Made by a program: the position numbers and the translations under genes. Below are positions 698-7,850 of a DNA stretch of 7,850 nucleotides, one piece after another. The DNA comes from a virus (lineage: Duplodnaviria; Heunggongvirae; Uroviricota; Caudoviricetes). The stretch is taken from IMG/VR virus record IMGVR_UViG_2690316241_000021; one strand, 5' to 3'. Numbering within the stretch: position 1 is the first letter of the stretch; every line of letters starts with the position of its first letter. The notes below the pieces were generated by a model that had not been told where the DNA came from, made no database searches, and saw only the letters and a list, made by a program, of their open reading frames with translations.

Positions 698-1060
698 GGG
701 GCTGATTCTGGATTCGACGGGATTTGCGAAACCCAAGGTGCATGCCGAGGGGCGGTTGGCCTCGTAAAAAGCCGCAAAAAATAGTCGCAAACGACGAAAA
801 CTACGCTTTAGCAGCTTAATAACCTGCTTAGAGCCCTCTCTCCCTAGCCTCCGCTCTTAGGACGGGGATCAAGAGAGGTCAAACCCAAAAGAGATCGCGT
901 GGAAGCCCTGCCTGGGGTTGAAGCGTTAAAACTTAATCAGGCTAGTTTGTTAGTGGCGTGTCCGTCCGCAGCTGGCAAGCGAATGTAAAGACTGACTAAG
1001 CATGTAGTACCGAGGATGTAGGAATTTCGGACGCGGGTTCAACTCCCGCCAGCTCCACCA
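698..1060 (+). ncRNA. ssrA: tmRNA (transfer-messenger RNA, 10Sa RNA)
   Basis: Begins GGGGCTGATTCTGGATTCGACGGG at 698 and ends GGTTCAACTCCCGCCAGCTCCACCA at 1060 (363 nt), matching E. coli tmRNA as I recall it. It contains the tag reading frame and a tRNA-like 3' end with CCA. Confidence 0.95.
787..819 (+). other. tmRNA proteolysis-tag reading frame (ANDENYALAA, then stop)
   Basis: GCAAACGACGAAAACTACGCTTTAGCAGCTTAA inside ssrA translates to A-N-D-E-N-Y-A-L-A-A followed by a stop, the canonical E. coli degradation tag. Confidence 0.85.
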
Positions 1061-1190
1061 ATCATGATTGGACGGTGTAAGGACAACACCAACAAAAACA
1101 GGAAGTTAGCAGTCTCAGCAGGACACCGACCAGACGGTGAGGAGACAAAAAAGGATACGCAAAGGAGCCGCGGCTCTCAAGTGTGAAAGA

Positions 1191-1216
1191 AGCCCGCAAA
1201 TTGCGGGCTTTTTTAT
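1191..1216 (+). terminator. Rho-independent terminator downstream of ssrA
   Basis: GC-rich hairpin AGCCCGC-aaatt-GCGGGCT (1191-1209) followed by the T-tract TTTTTTATT. A short palindrome GAGCCGCGGCTC lies just upstream (1166-1177). Confidence 0.7.
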
Positions 1217-1269
1217 TGATCAGTCAACAATAAACAGTAACCGAATGAGAATTTAATAAGGATATTCAT

Positions 1270-2301
1270 ATGGAAGCTACTGTGGATTCGATTGATTTTC
1301 TGATCCGTAGTGAAGATGATTTTCTAAACTTTCTGGAAGAAATGAAAGCCCGAGAGGGGCTTGATTCTAAAGAGTTTATTTTCCCTAACGTAAAGTTTGC
1401 AGGCTGGCCATCCTTAGACATAAATGTAAAAGGAGAGCGGTATCATTCATCAATTACATCAGCAATGTTGTTTGGTATGTCAATGCTCAACGAGGAGATA
1501 CAGCGGGCGTTTGCAACCATACGATACGGATCGCAGAATCTTCAACGCTTGACTAATGAAGACAAGCAACGACTTGATATAAATTTTAAAATTAGCGAAG
1601 GTTCTAGTGATGCGGAAGGCACCACTGACAAGATCATCAACGCAGTAACTGATTTTTTGCGAGATACTATGTCTGGACTGAACGGCTGGCAGAAAATGCT
1701 TGTTATAATCACAATGGTTGGCGCGGCCAGCACATGTGGTTATCACTACATTTCAGAAAATGCCGTAACAGAAAGACATGCAACTGATCGGCAGGTTGAA
1801 ATTGCAAAAACCACATCCGATGGCATAAACAAAGCCATAGAAGCAACATTAGATTATAAAATCTATGGGAAATCAGCGATTAGCGATAAAGTTACTAGTC
1901 ACGGACAAGCAGGTAAAAGTGCTTTAGTGAAGCAATTAGCTGCTGATCCTACTGTCGAAACCGTGACTTTAGGAAATGAGAAACTAACACGACAAGACCT
2001 AAATACCTACAACAGCCGACAATCTGTAGATAGAGAACGTAAAGAACGAACTGATATATTTTCCATCAAAGGTGTAACCAGAACAGGGCCAACAAATCAG
2101 GATATTAATATTAACGTTGTTAGGGTCTCTAATGACGAATGCTTCACAATCAAAGCTTCAGCTGATGTTATCACCCAAGATGAGTTGACAGCTATTGTTG
2201 ACGCTTTGTCAAACAACTCTCATATTAAAATCAGTTACTTAGAGGTAATTGAAAAGGGTGCTGTTTCTATAGGTCAGTTCAACACTATTGTTTCAGAATA
2301 A
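1270..2301 (+). CDS. Hypothetical protein (343 aa), AT-rich accessory gene
   Basis: Long uninterrupted ORF with an SD-like AAGGA 7 nt upstream of the ATG. By eye it is clearly more AT-rich than smpB (not computed). One internal hydrophobic stretch (WQKMLVIITMVGAASTCGYHYI) could be a membrane helix. I recognise no conserved motif. Confidence 0.6.
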   Translation: MEATVDSIDFLIRSEDDFLNFLEEMKAREGLDSKEFIFPNVKFAGWPSLDINVKGERYHSSITSAMLFGMSMLNEEIQRAFATIRYGSQNLQRLTNEDKQRLDINFKISEGSSDAEGTTDKIINAVTDFLRDTMSGLNGWQKMLVIITMVGAASTCGYHYISENAVTERHATDRQVEIAKTTSDGINKAIEATLDYKIYGKSAISDKVTSHGQAGKSALVKQLAADPTVETVTLGNEKLTRQDLNTYNSRQSVDRERKERTDIFSIKGVTRTGPTNQDININVVRVSNDECFTIKASADVITQDELTAIVDALSNNSHIKISYLEVIEKGAVSIGQFNTIVSE

Positions 2302-2352
2302 TCACTTAACCCCATTTATGTCGGTTGAGGTTATAAGTCACGGAGACCAGAT

Positions 2353-2697
2353 ATGTCCTTAAAGTATGCACATGAAAAATTTCATACTGCAGTACTTACT
2401 CTTGCGGGCCATGGAAGTATTCAAGAACGCTTGATTAATTCGTATGTTTTTAGCCTTGGGCATCTTAAAACAGCCGATGATATTCCAAATGCCTTACAAA
2501 GCAGGTTCGATGAATTATGTAAGGAACTGACTAAGTTTGATGCCACTGGCGATGAGGGGCGAGTTCAAGCAACAGTATCAAAACTTAACGATTTCGAGAT
2601 CAATAAACTGATCGAAGATATTGTCAGTCTTAACGATGATATTTGCATGAAATTGGCTCTGACGGATGAGACTTACCAAGACATACACCAAAGTTAA
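2353..2697 (+). CDS. Hypothetical protein (114 aa), probable operon partner of the upstream ORF
   Basis: ORF with SD GGAGA 6 nt upstream of the ATG, 51 nt after the stop of the 343-aa ORF, same strand, similarly AT-rich. Its last four codons and stop (I-H-Q-S-TAA, 2683-2697) lie inside the outer end of the left inverted repeat. No recognisable motif. Confidence 0.5.
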   Translation: MSLKYAHEKFHTAVLTLAGHGSIQERLINSYVFSLGHLKTADDIPNALQSRFDELCKELTKFDATGDEGRVQATVSKLNDFEINKLIEDIVSLNDDICMKLALTDETYQDIHQS

Positions 2698-2724
2698 TTG
2701 ATTAAATTCAAAAAGTTAACGTTC

Positions 2725-2756
2725 AACCAGCCAGTTTTTGGCTGGTTTATTGTCTT
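2725..2756. terminator. Hairpin terminator (left copy), probably bidirectional
   Basis: Stem AACCAGCCA-gtttt-TGGCTGGTT (2725-2747) followed by TTTATTGTCTT on the plus strand. This suits termination of the 343/114-aa operon. On the minus strand it follows the 70-aa ORF with a weaker T-rich tail. Confidence 0.5.
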
Positions 2757-2781
2757 ATAATATTCTTGCTCGAATGATGCA

Positions 2782-2994
2782 CTATTTATGATGTAATCCG
2801 GACATCAGTTCATGGACAAGATTATCTCTTTCATTGTGTTGCAACCGTAAATGCATAGCAAAAAGGTGAGCACTATCCTCATTCCTCTTCAAGCCATGCT
2901 GTTCAAGATACCCGAAAAAACGGCTTCTCTTATCCGCTATTTCCTGAGTCTGACGTGCAACATTTACCAAATTTTCTAGCGTTTTTCTTGGCAT
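2782..2994 (-). CDS. Hypothetical small protein (70 aa), left copy
   Basis: ORF with a strong SD (AGGAGG, 7-nt spacer) lying downstream of the invertase within the repeat arm and followed by the hairpin. Identical to the copy at 6580-6792. Function not recognised. Confidence 0.55.
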   Translation of the reverse strand: MPRKTLENLVNVARQTQEIADKRSRFFGYLEQHGLKRNEDSAHLFAMHLRLQHNERDNLVHELMSGLHHK

Positions 2995-3192
2995 ACTATT
3001 TCCTCCTGAAATTGTTGTAATTCACTAGGATATTCATTTTAATTTGTATCATTTAGTACCAAAACCGCTATCAATTAACAAAGCCATCGTTGTGGTTTAC
3101 CTTGCAGCCGTTTTTTGTCATTGACTCTATGTGAAAATAATGAATCATCATGAGATTGGCTCACACGTTCTTGAATTCGACGAGCTGTGTCT

Positions 3193-3747
3193 TTATTTAT
3201 CTCCTGCCGGAAACCTCTGATACAAAGTCGATACGCCAACATCATAGATAATCGCAACTTTCTGGCGCGGAACTCCTGATGCAATTAATCGTCCGGCTTG
3301 TGCCCATTGTTCTGGTGTAAGTTTGGGACGACGTCCACCAATTCGTCCCTGTGCGCGAGCAGCTTCCAGTCCAGCTTTTGTTCGTTCAACAATCAGTTCT
3401 CGTTCCATTTCAGCCAGGGCCCCCATCACATGAAAGAAAAAGCGCCCCATTGGGGTACTGGTATCAATTGAATCCGTCAGACTACGAAAGTTGATGCCTC
3501 GTTCGCGCAACTCCTCCACCAGCACGACAAGATGCCGCATACTGCGCCCCAGTCGGTCCAGTTTCCAGACCACCAGCGTATCGCCTGCCGATAATGTCCT
3601 GAGCAGTTTTTTCAGTCCCGGCCTTTCGGACTTTGTACCGCTTATCTTGTCTTCAAAAATCAGCTCGCATCCTGCACAGTTCAGCGCATTACGTTGTAGA
3701 TCTGTGTTCTGGTCATTTGTTGACACACGTACATAGCCAATAAGCAT
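3193..3747 (-). CDS. Serine DNA invertase, Hin/Gin/Cin/Pin family (left copy)
   Basis: The protein MLIGYVRVSTNDQNTDLQRNAL...VVWKLDRLGRSM...GRFFFHVMGALAEMERELIVERT...KVAIIYDVGVSTLYQRFPAGDK carries the catalytic-serine N-terminal motif of small serine recombinases and a Hin-like C-terminal HTH. The start is placed at the internal ATG (3747), which is preceded by SD AGGGAGA. The ORF track's upstream ATG at 3783 would add 12 residues. Confidence 0.9.
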   Translation of the reverse strand: MLIGYVRVSTNDQNTDLQRNALNCAGCELIFEDKISGTKSERPGLKKLLRTLSAGDTLVVWKLDRLGRSMRHLVVLVEELRERGINFRSLTDSIDTSTPMGRFFFHVMGALAEMERELIVERTKAGLEAARAQGRIGGRRPKLTPEQWAQAGRLIASGVPRQKVAIIYDVGVSTLYQRFPAGDK

Positions 3748-3773
3748 GGTAGATCTCCCTGACAAAAGCAGGA

Positions 3774-4286
3774 ATGATGCCATTTGCTCGTTATTTCTGC
3801 ATTTTCATAAACGTTGGTTTGGGAGAAGGTTCGGCATTACCCGTTGGTGTGCCTGTTCCGTGGCCTTCCGCCACTCCGCCAACGGGGTGGCTAAAATGTA
3901 ACGGAGCAGTATTTTCTTCTGAAAAGTACCCAAATCTGGCAAAGGCTTACCCAACATTAAAATTACCAGATTTACGCGGTGAATTTATTCGTGGCTGGGA
4001 TGATGGGCGCGGGATTGACTCTGGTCGTAACTTATTATCTGCACAGAATGATGCAATTCAGAATATTGTTGGTTCTTTTGGGCGTACCCAGCTTTTTAGA
4101 GACGTACTTAGTTCAGGGCCATTTAGTCAACATGGGCAAGTATTATCTACAGGTCTAAAGGAAGCCGCAATTATTGAGGGTTATGGCGCTTATAACTGGA
4201 CATTCGACGCATCTCGCTCAGTTCGCACAGCATCTGAAACCCGCTCCCGTAACATCGCCTTTAATTATATTGTGAGGGCTGCATGA
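3774..4286 (+). CDS. Tail-fibre variable C-terminal cassette Sv (receptor-binding domain); not fused to a constant region in this orientation
   Basis: The frame is open across site A. The translation contains VPVPWPSATPPTGW...YP.L...YP...PDLRG and ends ...NIAFNYIVRAA, matching the C-terminal region of lambda Stf / Mu S-type side tail fibres as I recall them. The ATG-ATG at 3774 is probably not the physiological start. The stop overlaps the tfa start (ATGA). Confidence 0.7.
   Translation: MMPFARYFCIFINVGLGEGSALPVGVPVPWPSATPPTGWLKCNGAVFSSEKYPNLAKAYPTLKLPDLRGEFIRGWDDGRGIDSGRNLLSAQNDAIQNIVGSFGRTQLFRDVLSSGPFSQHGQVLSTGLKEAAIIEGYGAYNWTFDASRSVRTASETRSRNIAFNYIVRAA
3802..3827. promoter_or_regulatory. 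hix/gix-like 26-bp crossover site A
   Basis: TTTTCATAAACG-TT-GGTTTGGGAGAA: two imperfect 12-bp inverted half-sites around a 2-bp core, resembling hixL and gix as recalled. It lies about 20 bp upstream of the invertase gene and at the inner edge of the repeat arm. Confidence 0.7.
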
Positions 4287-4888
4287 TAAGTAAAGCTGTA
4301 TTAAATAATGAACTCATCGCCACAAAGGCCGGAGACATTACCGTTTATAATTATGATGGTGAAACACGGGAATATATTTCCACATCAACTGAATATCTTG
4401 CTGTGGGTGTTGGTATCCCGGCATGTTCCTGTTTAGATGCTCCTGGCTCATATAAAGCTGGTTATGCAATTTGCCGTTCTGCAGATTTTAACTCATGGGA
4501 ATATGTGCCAGACCATCGCGGTGAAATCGTCTATAGCACCGAAACAGGAGAATCAAAAGAAATCACACTTCCGGGTGATTACCCTGAAAATACAACCACT
4601 ATCGCCCCGTTAACGTCATACGATAAATGGGATGGTGAGAAATGGGTGACCGATACTGAGGCACAGCATAACGCCGCAGTAGACGCGGCAGAAGTACGGC
4701 GCCAGTCACTGATTGATGCTGCTATGGCTTCCATTAGTCTGATTCAGCTGAAATTGCAGGCCGGGCGGAAGCTGACGCAGGCAGAAACAACCCGGCTTAA
4801 CGCTGTGCTGGATTACATTGACGCGGTGACTGCAACAGATACCAGCACCGCGCCGGATGTCATCTGGCCTGAACTACCGGAGGCGTAG
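4283..4888 (+). CDS. tfa: Tail-fibre assembly chaperone (Tfa / Mu U family)
   Basis: 201-aa ORF whose start overlaps the Sv stop. Its C-terminus ...DTSTAPDVIWPELPEA and central ...W.YV.DHRG..VY... match the lambda Tfa family from memory. Confidence 0.85.
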   Translation: MISKAVLNNELIATKAGDITVYNYDGETREYISTSTEYLAVGVGIPACSCLDAPGSYKAGYAICRSADFNSWEYVPDHRGEIVYSTETGESKEITLPGDYPENTTTIAPLTSYDKWDGEKWVTDTEAQHNAAVDAAEVRRQSLIDAAMASISLIQLKLQAGRKLTQAETTRLNAVLDYIDAVTATDTSTAPDVIWPELPEA

Positions 4889-5303
4889 GCCATTCAATAT
4901 CTGGAGCACTGGAGGTATCAACCAGTTCCAGTGCGTCCAGATAATCCAGCCATAAATTATATTGTTCCAGCTCGTAACCTTTCAGACGACCAATAGCAGC
5001 TTTGCCAGGCCACTGATGGGTATTGATGTAGGTATTGACTTCTGAAACCAAAGATATCTTTTTCATTTCAGCCGCCAGCATCTCATCCTCTTTTGAAGGC
5101 GGCGGGGAATTAATCCATATTGGCCGTCCTGAACTGTCAGCGCCAATTTCTTTCCCTTCTGGATGCAGCCCAAGAAATTGCTCATATGTTTCTCTGGTAA
5201 TTTCAATAACATCATCAGGAAGCGTTCCCGCATCCTCATATTCTGGAAACAATTCTTGCAGATAAAAACTTTTACTTGCGGGTGAAAAGAATACTGAGTT
5301 CAT
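4860..5303 (-). CDS. tfa: Alternative tail-fibre assembly chaperone (Tfa' / Mu U' analogue)
   Basis: 147-aa ORF convergent with the other tfa, with 29 nt of 3' overlap. Its C-terminus ...VDTSSAPDIEWPTPPVVQAR carries the Tfa motif. It lies directly downstream of the second variable cassette. Confidence 0.8.
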   Translation of the reverse strand: MNSVFFSPASKSFYLQELFPEYEDAGTLPDDVIEITRETYEQFLGLHPEGKEIGADSSGRPIWINSPPPSKEDEMLAAEMKKISLVSEVNTYINTHQWPGKAAIGRLKGYELEQYNLWLDYLDALELVDTSSAPDIEWPTPPVVQAR

Positions 5304-5305
5304 TC

Positions 5306-5800
5306 TTACCGTCCAATGATTAACGCTGAGACGCTGGTATCTGAAGGAAAGGCTGCATTCAGTGGTTTGTCGACTTTGAACACAATCGTATTATTCCCCC
5401 TGACAGCGGCAAAAGAACAAACCGCCGTCGCGTATGAACCTGTAATATTACTGGATACACCACCATAAGCTGTTGTTGATACCAGAGGGATAACGCCCAG
5501 CACCTTATTAGGAAATACAAAGGGCAATGTGGCTGTGGCAATATAAGACTTATTAGAACCTGTAATGGCATAAGCATTATCAGTCATTCCATTCATCGCC
5601 ACTGGACCGCTTATACTTACAGTAACCATCTGAATGATTAGCCCGTCAGGTTGACGAATCACAAAATTTCCATTGCCACCAGTAACCGTCCAGAAAGACA
5701 TATCAGGGATTTGGTTTTCCCCGTTGCCCACATTTCGTTTTGCCGCTTCTCCCAAACCAACGTTTATGAAAATGCAGAAATAACGAGCAAATGGCATCAT
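5306..5800 (-). CDS. Alternative tail-fibre variable C-terminal cassette Sv'
   Basis: The frame is open across site B and shares the repeat-encoded prefix ...INVGLGE with Sv before diverging into a different sequence. Assigned by its mirror position and its pairing with Tfa'; the domain itself is not recognised by me. Confidence 0.6.
   Translation of the reverse strand: MMPFARYFCIFINVGLGEAAKRNVGNGENQIPDMSFWTVTGGNGNFVIRQPDGLIIQMVTVSISGPVAMNGMTDNAYAITGSNKSYIATATLPFVFPNKVLGVIPLVSTTAYGGVSSNITGSYATAVCSFAAVRGNNTIVFKVDKPLNAAFPSDTSVSALIIGR
5747..5772. promoter_or_regulatory. hix/gix-like 26-bp crossover site B
   Basis: TTCTCCCAAACC-AA-CGTTTATGAAAA, the exact reverse complement of site A, about 20 bp upstream of the right invertase copy. 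Confidence 0.7.
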
Positions 5801-5826
5801 TCCTGCTTTTGTCAGGGAGATCTACC

Positions 5827-6381
5827 ATGCTTATTGGCTATGTACGTGTGTCAACAAATGACCAGAACACAGATCTACAACGTAATGCGCTGAACTGTGC
5901 AGGATGCGAGCTGATTTTTGAAGACAAGATAAGCGGTACAAAGTCCGAAAGGCCGGGACTGAAAAAACTGCTCAGGACATTATCGGCAGGCGATACGCTG
6001 GTGGTCTGGAAACTGGACCGACTGGGGCGCAGTATGCGGCATCTTGTCGTGCTGGTGGAGGAGTTGCGCGAACGAGGCATCAACTTTCGTAGTCTGACGG
6101 ATTCAATTGATACCAGTACCCCAATGGGGCGCTTTTTCTTTCATGTGATGGGGGCCCTGGCTGAAATGGAACGAGAACTGATTGTTGAACGAACAAAAGC
6201 TGGACTGGAAGCTGCTCGCGCACAGGGACGAATTGGTGGACGTCGTCCCAAACTTACACCAGAACAATGGGCACAAGCCGGACGATTAATTGCATCAGGA
6301 GTTCCGCGCCAGAAAGTTGCGATTATCTATGATGTTGGCGTATCGACTTTGTATCAGAGGTTTCCGGCAGGAGATAAATAA
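5827..6381 (+). CDS. Serine DNA invertase, Hin/Gin/Cin/Pin family (right copy)
   Basis: Identical protein to the left copy. SD AGGGAGA lies 6 nt upstream of the ATG at 5827. It diverges outward from crossover site B. Confidence 0.9.
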   Translation: MLIGYVRVSTNDQNTDLQRNALNCAGCELIFEDKISGTKSERPGLKKLLRTLSAGDTLVVWKLDRLGRSMRHLVVLVEELRERGINFRSLTDSIDTSTPMGRFFFHVMGALAEMERELIVERTKAGLEAARAQGRIGGRRPKLTPEQWAQAGRLIASGVPRQKVAIIYDVGVSTLYQRFPAGDK

Positions 6382-6579
6382 AGACACAGCTCGTCGAATT
6401 CAAGAACGTGTGAGCCAATCTCATGATGATTCATTATTTTCACATAGAGTCAATGACAAAAAACGGCTGCAAGGTAAACCACAACGATGGCTTTGTTAAT
6501 TGATAGCGGTTTTGGTACTAAATGATACAAATTAAAATGAATATCCTAGTGAATTACAACAATTTCAGGAGGAAATAGT

Positions 6580-6792
6580 ATGCCAAGAAAAACGCTAGAA
6601 AATTTGGTAAATGTTGCACGTCAGACTCAGGAAATAGCGGATAAGAGAAGCCGTTTTTTCGGGTATCTTGAACAGCATGGCTTGAAGAGGAATGAGGATA
6701 GTGCTCACCTTTTTGCTATGCATTTACGGTTGCAACACAATGAAAGAGATAATCTTGTCCATGAACTGATGTCCGGATTACATCATAAATAG
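6580..6792 (+). CDS. Hypothetical small protein (70 aa), right copy
   Basis: SD AGGAGG at 6567-6572 with a 7-nt spacer, then MPRKTLENLVNVARQTQEIADKRSRFFGYLEQHGLKRNEDSAHLFAMHLRLQHNERDNLVHELMSGLHHK. Followed by the hairpin at 6827-6849. Confidence 0.55.
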   Translation: MPRKTLENLVNVARQTQEIADKRSRFFGYLEQHGLKRNEDSAHLFAMHLRLQHNERDNLVHELMSGLHHK

Positions 6793-6818
6793 TGCATCAT
6801 TCGAGCAAGAATATTATA

Positions 6819-6849
6819 AGACAATAAACCAGCCAAAAACTGGCTGGTT
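6819..6849. terminator. Hairpin terminator (right copy), probably bidirectional
   Basis: AACCAGCCA-aaaac-TGGCTGGTT at 6827-6849. On the minus strand it is followed by TTTATTGTCTT, so it would stop transcripts coming from the tail-fibre constant region. Confidence 0.5.
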
Positions 6850-6872
6850 GAACGTTAACTTTTTGAATTTAA

Positions 6873-7196
6873 TCAATTAACTTTGGTGTATACTTCTCCC
6901 AAACCAAGGTTTTCGAGAGCCGTTTTCACCGTGCCATCAGATTTGATATCGCCAAACGGATTCTTGCGGCTTAACAGCAGCGCACGAAGCGCGGTAAGCA
7001 GCTGGTCATGCCGCCCCTTCTCCAGGCTGGCACCGGATGCCTCCACCACGCTGCAGAGTTCTTCCTGCAACATGTCAAAGTAGTCATCATCCAGATCGGT
7101 GGCAGGTGTGCCGGTCTGGGGGTTACCACGGGTAAAACCGTTCTTACCCGCGCCGAACTTATCCTTCTGCGCGGTTTTCGTGTCTATACGATGCAT
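6873..7196 (-). CDS. Tail-fibre N-terminal constant region (Sc analogue), ending in a repeat-encoded stub
   Basis: 107-aa ORF starting 3 nt after the stop of the upstream baseplate gene. Its 3' end runs through crossover site C and then reads only V-Y-T-K-V-N-stop from the repeat's outer end. Assigned from position and the in-frame crossover site, not from recognised homology. Confidence 0.55.
6894..6919. promoter_or_regulatory. hix/gix-like 26-bp crossover site C, inside the 3' end of the tail-fibre constant region
   Basis: TTCTCCCAAACC-AA-GGTTTTCGAGAG. Its first 14 nt are identical to site B and it is a near-palindrome of the hixL type. It lies 3 bp outside the repeat arm. On the minus strand it encodes ...ENLGLGE, in the same frame relative to the core as the ...NVGLGE encoded at sites A and B. 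Confidence 0.65.
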
Positions 7197-7199
7197 GGA

Positions 7200-7850
<651 letters not shown>

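Follow-up and report, generated by a model that had tools for sequence, protein, structure and literature searches.

orf70, a probable cargo gene at the ssrA-proximal end of an e14-like Escherichia coli prophage, and its apparent duplication with the tail-fiber invertase gene pin

The window analyzed here, a stretch of 7,850 nucleotides (nt) of viral DNA from the IMG/VR record IMGVR_UViG_2690316241_000021, is, judged from its sequence, the end of an e14-like Escherichia coli prophage integrated next to ssrA, the gene for transfer-messenger RNA (tmRNA). The subject of this work is orf70, a small gene for a protein of 70 amino acids (aa) at positions 6580-6792 on the plus strand, with an identical twin at 2782-2994 on the minus strand; both are in the list of open reading frames (ORFs). 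The right-hand copy is preceded by pin (5827-6381, plus strand), which encodes a serine DNA invertase of 184 aa when read from its second ATG (Pfam Resolvase, 1.8e-51; HTH_7, 4e-13) and is annotated as pinE in RefSeq. Between the two genes lies an AT-rich spacer or leader of 198 nt (6382-6579, plus strand). A near-consensus Shine-Dalgarno (SD) sequence, AGGAGG, is located at 6567-6572 on the plus strand, 7 nt 5' of the ATG, as an earlier note on this DNA had described, and a hairpin with a 9-bp stem (6827-6849) follows between the convergent orf70 and orf114.

Both orf70 copies are part of a perfect inverted repeat of 1,146 nt. Its left arm (2683-3828, minus strand) comprises the last 15 nt of orf114, the left-hand copy of the hairpin (2725-2747, directly 3' of orf114), orf70, the spacer, pin (3193-3747, minus strand), and a crossover site, and is arranged as in complete genomes (pin-orf70-orf114-orf343-ssrA). 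Its right arm (5746-6891, plus strand) ends exactly at a suspect joint. The hix-like crossover site s1 of 26 bp (3802-3827, TTTTCATAAACG TT GGTTTGGGAGAA) has a twin at 5747-5772, and a tail-fiber-side site is found at 6894-6919; the half-site and core layout agrees with the invertase sites tabulated in PMC4134206. The invertible segment (3774-5800) carries two alternative fiber ends and two tail-fiber assembly genes. At 6892, the probable scaffold joint, a single A matches neither flank. The right end of the window holds the constant 5' part of the tail-fiber gene (6873-7196, minus strand) and the Mu gp48/YmfQ baseplate gene (7200-7811, minus strand). Compared with the DNA of e14 from E. coli K-12, ymfQ and the constant tail-fiber region are 97% identical, and the pinE region is 93.9% identical.

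Our comparisons indicate that orf70 is a real, conserved protein-coding gene under purifying selection. Its product is already annotated in RefSeq as "hypothetical protein" WP_001137529.1, and the coding sequence is present in RefSeq genomes. A word-indexed search returned only orf70 copies of at least 95% identity. An exhaustive phmmer search of 1.84 billion representatives detected five small homologs (67-76 aa, 40-58% identity), and a profile search extended the family to 16 members with a core length of 67-76 aa and identities down to 37%. These are confined to Enterobacteriaceae, namely, Escherichia, Salmonella, Citrobacter, Pantoea, and Scandinavium; a locus search with a subset alignment of the family yielded one genome locus and seven viral contigs. 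The family core can be aligned without any gap, and synonymous substitution approaches saturation with the amino acids kept; dN/dS ranges from 0.09 to 0.44 across the six computable pairs, and each of the nine homologous loci printed has an SD-like purine run in the same position. Since homologs at 37-58% identity show purifying selection, the ORF is far beyond chance. It could be argued that orf70 is spurious and that the region works as noncoding DNA, either as a promoter or terminator region or as a small RNA, considering that it is short, AT-rich, and without an entry in curated protein-family libraries. However, conservation at the protein level with saturated synonymous sites and dN/dS well below 1, the conserved start codon and SD site, and a spacer without Rfam match or stable fold (z = +1.15) leave this explanation an almost negligible probability. 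Known so far as a RefSeq hypothetical protein, the orf70 product belongs to a new, narrow small-protein family of an ordinary kind, and the gene is probably prophage-end cargo.

In agreement with the initial impression that the protein resembles nothing familiar, curated libraries provided no significant Pfam, NCBIfam, PHROG, or PADLOC match for any family member. In searches of Pfam, NCBIfam, and PHROG with orf70 and 15 family members, no match fell below E = 0.02, and every match was obtained with one member only; PADLOC, queried with orf70, orf114, and orf343, returned no family at E <= 0.1. Profile searches against sequences of the PDB produced chance matches only (P450, E = 0.044 and 0.14; odorant-binding protein, E = 0.69). 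With tblastn, nothing was found for orf70 in phage records, and the sole match in plasmid records was a pseudo-plasmid of 2637 bp. A literature search on the RefSeq protein accessions found no paper. AlphaFold predicted a two-helix hairpin from the single orf70 sequence (pLDDT 82) and, with the 16-sequence alignment, a long helix (residues 4-33) followed by short helices at 39-48 and 53-65 (pLDDT 78). The alignment-based model contains a helix-loop-helix segment with helix-turn-helix (HTH)-like spacing. Profile search and structure prediction, the checks named in the earlier note, thus gave no family match and a small all-helical model. McrA is an HNH nuclease and Mom forms a family of its own; in Pfam, NCBIfam, and PHROG, no significant match places orf70 in the McrA, Mom, or Com families. 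Similarly, no Pfam match to HTH proteins of the Xis, Exc, or AlpA type was detected, fold searches gave no confident match, and the match of one family member to the PHROG "excisionase" was not significant (E = 0.15). There may be a weak resemblance between the orf70 protein and the tyrosine-recombinase core-binding domain.

Relative to K-12 e14, DNA homology extends as far as window position 6383, 2 nt past the pin stop codon. Beyond this point, e14 continues with mcrA and icdC, and the window continues with the spacer, orf70, orf114, and orf343. Spacer and orf70 are therefore not common to the window and e14 and lie outside the conserved invertase module. Pin-like DNA was present in 2540 of 5426 complete E. 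coli genomes, near full length in 1225, and orf70 in 46. Conservation of the gene beside invertases in other prophages, named beforehand in the earlier note as a check on its proposed functional module, was not observed: an intact invertase was found within the 6- to 8-kb flanks of none of eight distant homologs (37-58% identity; called genes and tblastn), and tblastn, the sole method applied to a ninth locus (L035), revealed none there. One Citrobacter braakii locus carries a 40-aa relic of the Pin C terminus 2.7 kb 5' of the homolog. On the basis of these sequence comparisons, orf70 is not tied to invertases. If orf70 were an accessory or regulatory subunit of Pin inversion, setting, for example, inversion frequency or direction, this would account for its place 198 nt 3' of pin, with which it shares the strand, in all copies examined from E. 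coli and Salmonella, and the modeled small helical product with its basic N terminus could bind DNA or protein. We nevertheless give this proposal only a very slight chance, given the distant homologs that are not beside invertases, the approximately 98% of E. coli genomes with pin-like DNA that lack orf70, and K-12 pinE (93.9% DNA identity), which precedes mcrA with homology breaking off 2 nt past the stop codon. Moreover, the invertases Gin, Hin, Cin, and Pin need only two crossover sites, an enhancer, and host Fis. The argument from co-duplication with pin also collapses if the inverted repeat is an artifact.

Two further observations concern pin and its surroundings. In the complete genome CP123010.1 (3438-7802), epd/gapA-like, pgk, and fbaA are located directly 5' of pin in place of the tail-fiber genes, an arrangement pointing to a large inversion or rearrangement of the chromosome, one end of which would be the pin crossover site. 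In E. coli 042 and another strain, the pin-orf70-orf114-orf343-ssrA block stands behind a lambdoid long tail fiber, with no e14-like (Mu-type) baseplate, and pin has a frameshift or a truncation there and an identity of only about 89%. Recombination within pin appears to have exchanged the block between prophage types.

In the complete genomes, the apparent co-duplication of orf70 with each invertase copy, as put forward in the earlier note, was not borne out. Of 5426 complete E. coli genomes, 46 contain the 510 bases comprising spacer, orf70, and hairpin, each of them once, and the gene order there is ymfQ, fiber, invertible segment, pin, orf70, opposite-strand orf114 and orf343, and ssrA. 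The sequence around the joint at 6892 (6790-6990) was found in none of the 5426. The right arm of the repeat stops at 6891, 6892 is an odd base, and 6893 is the start of a new piece beginning with the crossover site; since the two orientations of the invertible segment begin to differ at 6893, this is a natural contig end. The IMG/VR scaffolds L029 and L031 are 99.8-100% identical to the window piece by piece, yet the three present mutually incompatible orders of these pieces. Single N letters are placed at their joints (L029, position 2346; L031, positions 2013 and 5025), and an N of L031 directly precedes CTTCTCCC, which is the position of window base 6892. As drawn, the tail-fiber gene of the window is truncated to 107 aa. 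A Pin-mediated origin of the 6891/6893 joint was considered and rejected: a distance of 13 nt separates the joint from the crossover dinucleotide, and no half-site is present in the left-arm flank, so that Pin could not have made this joint. An analysis of E. coli EC958 described alternate-orientation contigs of invertible tail-fiber regions and warned of this type of artifact (PMC4134206).

We therefore consider it very probable that the right-arm copy of pin and orf70 is a scaffolding artifact of the invertible tail-fiber segment. Contigs of both segment orientations would have been merged into one scaffold, which would have created the second copy; the window has the features of a scaffold built from the contigs of a culture in which both orientations were present. 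Were the inverted duplication real, it would constitute a three-site inversion system, arisen, for example, by tandem duplication of pin and its site followed by inversion. The three crossover sites of the window have orientations permitting interconversion, and another scaffold with a different invertible segment, L033, contains two inverted pin-orf70 copies with no N. Set against this are the lack of any two-copy genome among the 46 and of the joint among the 5426, the orphan base that ends the right arm directly before a crossover site and coincides with an N in L031, the incompatible orders in nearly identical scaffolds, a joint beyond the reach of Pin, the shortened tail-fiber gene, and the published warning; a real duplication is unlikely. 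Conservation in both repeat arms had also been taken as a sign of a functional module. This does not hold, because the arms are 100% identical over coding and noncoding DNA alike and, even if real, would carry no information on selection acting on orf70.

A related observation was made for NZ_CP148395.1, a record of 2637 bp deposited as a circular plasmid, which corresponds to window positions 1177-3813 and contains only pin, orf70, orf114, and orf343. Its ends coincide with the prophage boundary (at about 1177) and with crossover-site base 3813, where the pin-side and tail-fiber-side half-sites differ, and these positions suggest that it is probably a mis-circularized contig. The junction, AAACG|TCAAGTGTGAAAGAAG, loosely resembles a half-site, and a Pin-mediated excision circle keeps a slight probability. 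A real excision circle of 2637 bp was judged improbable, as the reciprocal chromosomal joint, searched for assuming one orientation of the segment, was in no complete genome.

At every distant locus, a prophage or prophage remnant has the orf70 homolog as its terminal gene, which reads outward and is followed within a few hundred bases by host genes or the integrase of the next prophage. This terminal position was seen in Pantoea, three Citrobacter species, Scandinavium, and Escherichia sp., and the upstream neighbors are lambdoid end cargo such as DinI, SRAP, UmuDC, Abi, and EAL proteins. In four loci, the "50-aa ORF" 3' of the homolog is a displaced 3' fragment of icd encoding the C-terminal part of isocitrate dehydrogenase (L015, 731-883; L018, 6411-6563; L023 and L025, 6637-6789). 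Such a displaced icd 3' end marks the right end of icd-integrating prophages, for example, e14 (icdC in K-12). On the upstream side, four loci contain an antisense 3' fragment of tRNA-Pro(GGG), 48-63 nt in length and located at -130 to -70 relative to the ATG (z = 22-41 versus shuffles), two further loci contain a decayed copy of it, and, equally far from the ATG, the Scandinavium locus contains 28 nt from the 3' end of ssrA (z = 12.5). These fragments were mapped to 5871-5925 in L016, 5876-5925 in L017, 5879-5926 in L021, 5958-6018 in L023, and 263-290 in L014. About 48 nt of the fragment are identical between L016 and L017, whose orf70 proteins share under half of their residues. By sequence and spacing, the antisense tRNA-Pro or ssrA fragment at a near-fixed distance looks like a fossil attachment core. 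In the spacer of the window itself, no tRNA or ssrA attachment (att) relic was detectable (z < 1).

This raises the possibility that orf70 is an att-linked DNA-binding factor acting on integrase recombination or on transcription across the prophage junction, either as a modulator of excision or integration or as a stand-alone relative of the tyrosine-recombinase core-binding domain. The gene is the one nearest to the prophage-host junction, with the tRNA-Pro or ssrA fragments before it and icd fragments downstream; the HTH-like spacing in the model would suit DNA binding; and in L025 the homolog lies just across the junction from an integrase-excisionase pair. Conversely, sequence searches linked orf70 to no integrase SAM-like, excisionase, or HTH family, and the integrase of L025 already has its own conventional Exc-type excisionase gene. 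The homologs are on the arm opposite the integrase and are neither adjacent to nor co-oriented with it as an excisionase would be, and the window copy, without a detectable upstream att relic, is separated from the ssrA junction by 1.6 kb and two genes. We see a small chance for such a factor, and a still more slender one that orf70 represents a new family of small attachment-site-linked DNA-binding proteins that modulate integrase recombination or mark a landing pad reused by successive prophages.

A cargo system composed of orf70, orf114, and orf343, for example, for antiphage defense or as a toxin-antitoxin module, has somewhat more to recommend it and is still decidedly improbable. The three AT-rich genes form an almost invariant 2.6-kb block beside ssrA, behind both e14-like tails with Mu-type baseplate and lambdoid tails, and the equivalent slot of e14 holds the restriction enzyme gene mcrA. 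However, none of the three has a PADLOC match, orf70 is convergent and not co-transcribed with the other two, neither orf114 nor orf343 is present beside the distant orf70 homologs, and no orf70-like or orf114-like gene was found beside the orf343 relatives, which are widespread in Enterobacterales at element ends. The absence of orf114 and orf343 from the distant orf70 loci and the solitary orf343 relatives imply separate cargo units that are stacked here. At the sequence level, orf343 matches phrog_6191 (function unknown), and neither orf114 nor orf343 has a Pfam match or an annotated function. A convergent gene for 114 aa beside the Citrobacter portucalensis homolog was considered as a counterpart of orf114 and rejected, as the two share no homology. 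Relatives of orf343 (L037-L040) also occupy the extreme end of prophages or islands; in Enterobacter, for example, the gene comes right behind tRNA-Pro, and Cronobacter has two paralogs in tandem.

The spacer, with 35% G+C compared to 46% for the whole window, is as AT-rich as had been reported. Its composition resembles that of orf70 (40%), orf114 (39%), and orf343 (40%) as opposed to pin (50%) and ymfQ (57%), and by this measure and the end of e14 homology it is part of the orf70 cargo cassette, not of the invertase module. The earlier note had suggested that the spacer could hold a promoter or a small RNA, and the former part of this guess gained support. A TAT..T box about 30-38 nt 5' of the ATG is invariant in eight diverged aligned upstream regions, reading TATACT or TATAAT in the relatives; in the window, the candidate sigma-70 -10 box is TATCCT (6542-6547, plus strand), 32 nt 5' of the ATG. 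Thus, the orf70 promoter is probably located in the spacer. The small RNA found no such support, as the spacer has no Rfam match and 6382-6530, with the z value given above, no stable fold that would speak for a structured leader. Because DinI, SRAP, and UmuDC genes often adjoin orf70 relatives, a LexA box was looked for 5' of orf70 in the window, and none was found. LexA boxes at -290 in L016 and L023 were seen and probably belong to the divergent dinI.

A hairpin terminator of its own had likewise been ascribed to orf70. A stable hairpin is present, beginning 35 nt past the stop codon, and a fold of -19.2 kcal/mol (z = -3.5) was computed for the 88 nt that include it. On the orf70 strand, however, it is followed by GAACGUUAAC and no U tract, and a terminator scan scored it solely on the opposite strand, that of the convergent orf114. 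With the U-rich tail on the orf114 strand only, the hairpin is shared, at best bidirectional, and not a canonical terminator specific to orf70.

The left end of the window contains E. coli smpB (1-483) as its first gene, followed by ssrA (698-1060, plus strand; Rfam, 295.8 bits; ARAGORN). Positions 1077-1176 are common to thousands of E. coli genomes, and the best matches listed stop about 5 nt past 1176; ssrA and conserved downstream DNA therefore extend over 698-1176 (plus strand), and prophage DNA starts at about 1177. Just within this boundary, 3' of ssrA, a strong hairpin followed by a T run (AAGCCCGCAAATTGCGGGCTTTTTTATT) is located at 1192-1215, and the terminator of the tmRNA gene seems to be supplied by the prophage. 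The cargo genes orf343 (1270-2301) and orf114 (2353-2697) follow, both on the plus strand and convergent with orf70.

Taken together, we favor as the likely explanation that orf70 is an autonomous cargo gene ("moron") between the tail-fiber invertase gene and the attachment site of an e14-like prophage beside ssrA, its second copy being an artifact. At a module boundary where e14 has mcrA, prophages that are otherwise homologous may carry or lack orf70, and its base composition is distinct from that of the flanking phage genes, both of which are traits of morons. In this scenario, orf70, which has a strong ribosome-binding site, would be transcribed from its own sigma-70 promoter with the -10 box at 6542-6547, and transcription would probably go on in the lysogen and end at the hairpin shared with convergent orf114. 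The product would be a soluble all-helical protein of 67-76 aa, predicted to have a basic N terminus, a long N-terminal helix, and two short helices, and might act in trans by binding another macromolecule. Its role would most likely be an accessory function benefiting lysogen or phage, and not the DNA-inversion step.

Several observations weigh against this explanation. The invariable position of orf70 after pin in the E. coli and Salmonella copies may reflect a lineage-specific functional link to Pin; being at least 95% identical, these copies amount to one lineage. The -10 box of the window is weaker than the versions of its relatives, no -35 element was recognizable, and a consensus promoter scan found nothing on the orf70 strand. 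Finally, the N-free inverted pair in L033, which is similar to that of the window and starts at a contig end, could be the same artifact or a real recurrent rearrangement.

Comparison with known systems places orf70 in familiar surroundings. As the earlier note had recognized, its position equals the mcrA slot of e14, where the K-12 order is ymfQ-stfP-tfaP-tfaE-stfE-pinE-mcrA-icdC: on the same phage backbone, both genes come first after the stop codon of the invertase gene, in the final stretch leading to the attachment site. In contrast to the 277-aa type IV restriction enzyme McrA, however, the orf70 product is a 70-aa helical protein with no sequence relation to it, the prophage of the window abuts ssrA and e14 abuts icd, and three cargo genes are present in the former and one in the latter. 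Morons, as in lambda and HK97, are autonomous cargo units of promoter, gene, and terminator in prophage late regions and ends. From its sequence, orf70 shares with them the location between conserved phage modules, variable presence, distinct G+C content, a likely promoter, and a downstream hairpin; it differs in that this hairpin is a canonical terminator for the opposite strand only and that promoter and terminator are predicted. In phage Mu, the accessory genes com and mom also come after the invertase gene (gin) at the right end of the genome. The enzyme Mom modifies DNA and depends on Com for its expression, and neither homology, with no Pfam family matched by orf70, nor anything comparable to this dependence exists here. 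In the relatives, orf70 directly adjoins the attachment site, with the integrase on the other arm (L025), reminiscent of lambda sib/tI and the small genes beside attP. Lambda sib is an RNA element acting on int mRNA, whereas orf70 is a selected protein-coding gene and, in the window, stands two genes away from the junction.

The main value of this analysis is corrective, in that it advises against taking the inverted duplication of an invertase gene and a small gene for a three-site inversion system. The regular association of the orf70 relatives with fossil attachment fragments is a small curiosity that bears on the rebuilding of prophage ends. Beyond this, orf70 adds an uncharacterized small-protein family, 67-76 aa in length and restricted to Enterobacteriaceae, to the slot occupied by mcrA in e14 and by mom in Mu. 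Since such slots have been productive for defense, anti-defense, and lysogen-fitness functions, the family would be a reasonable, if low-priority, candidate for screening.

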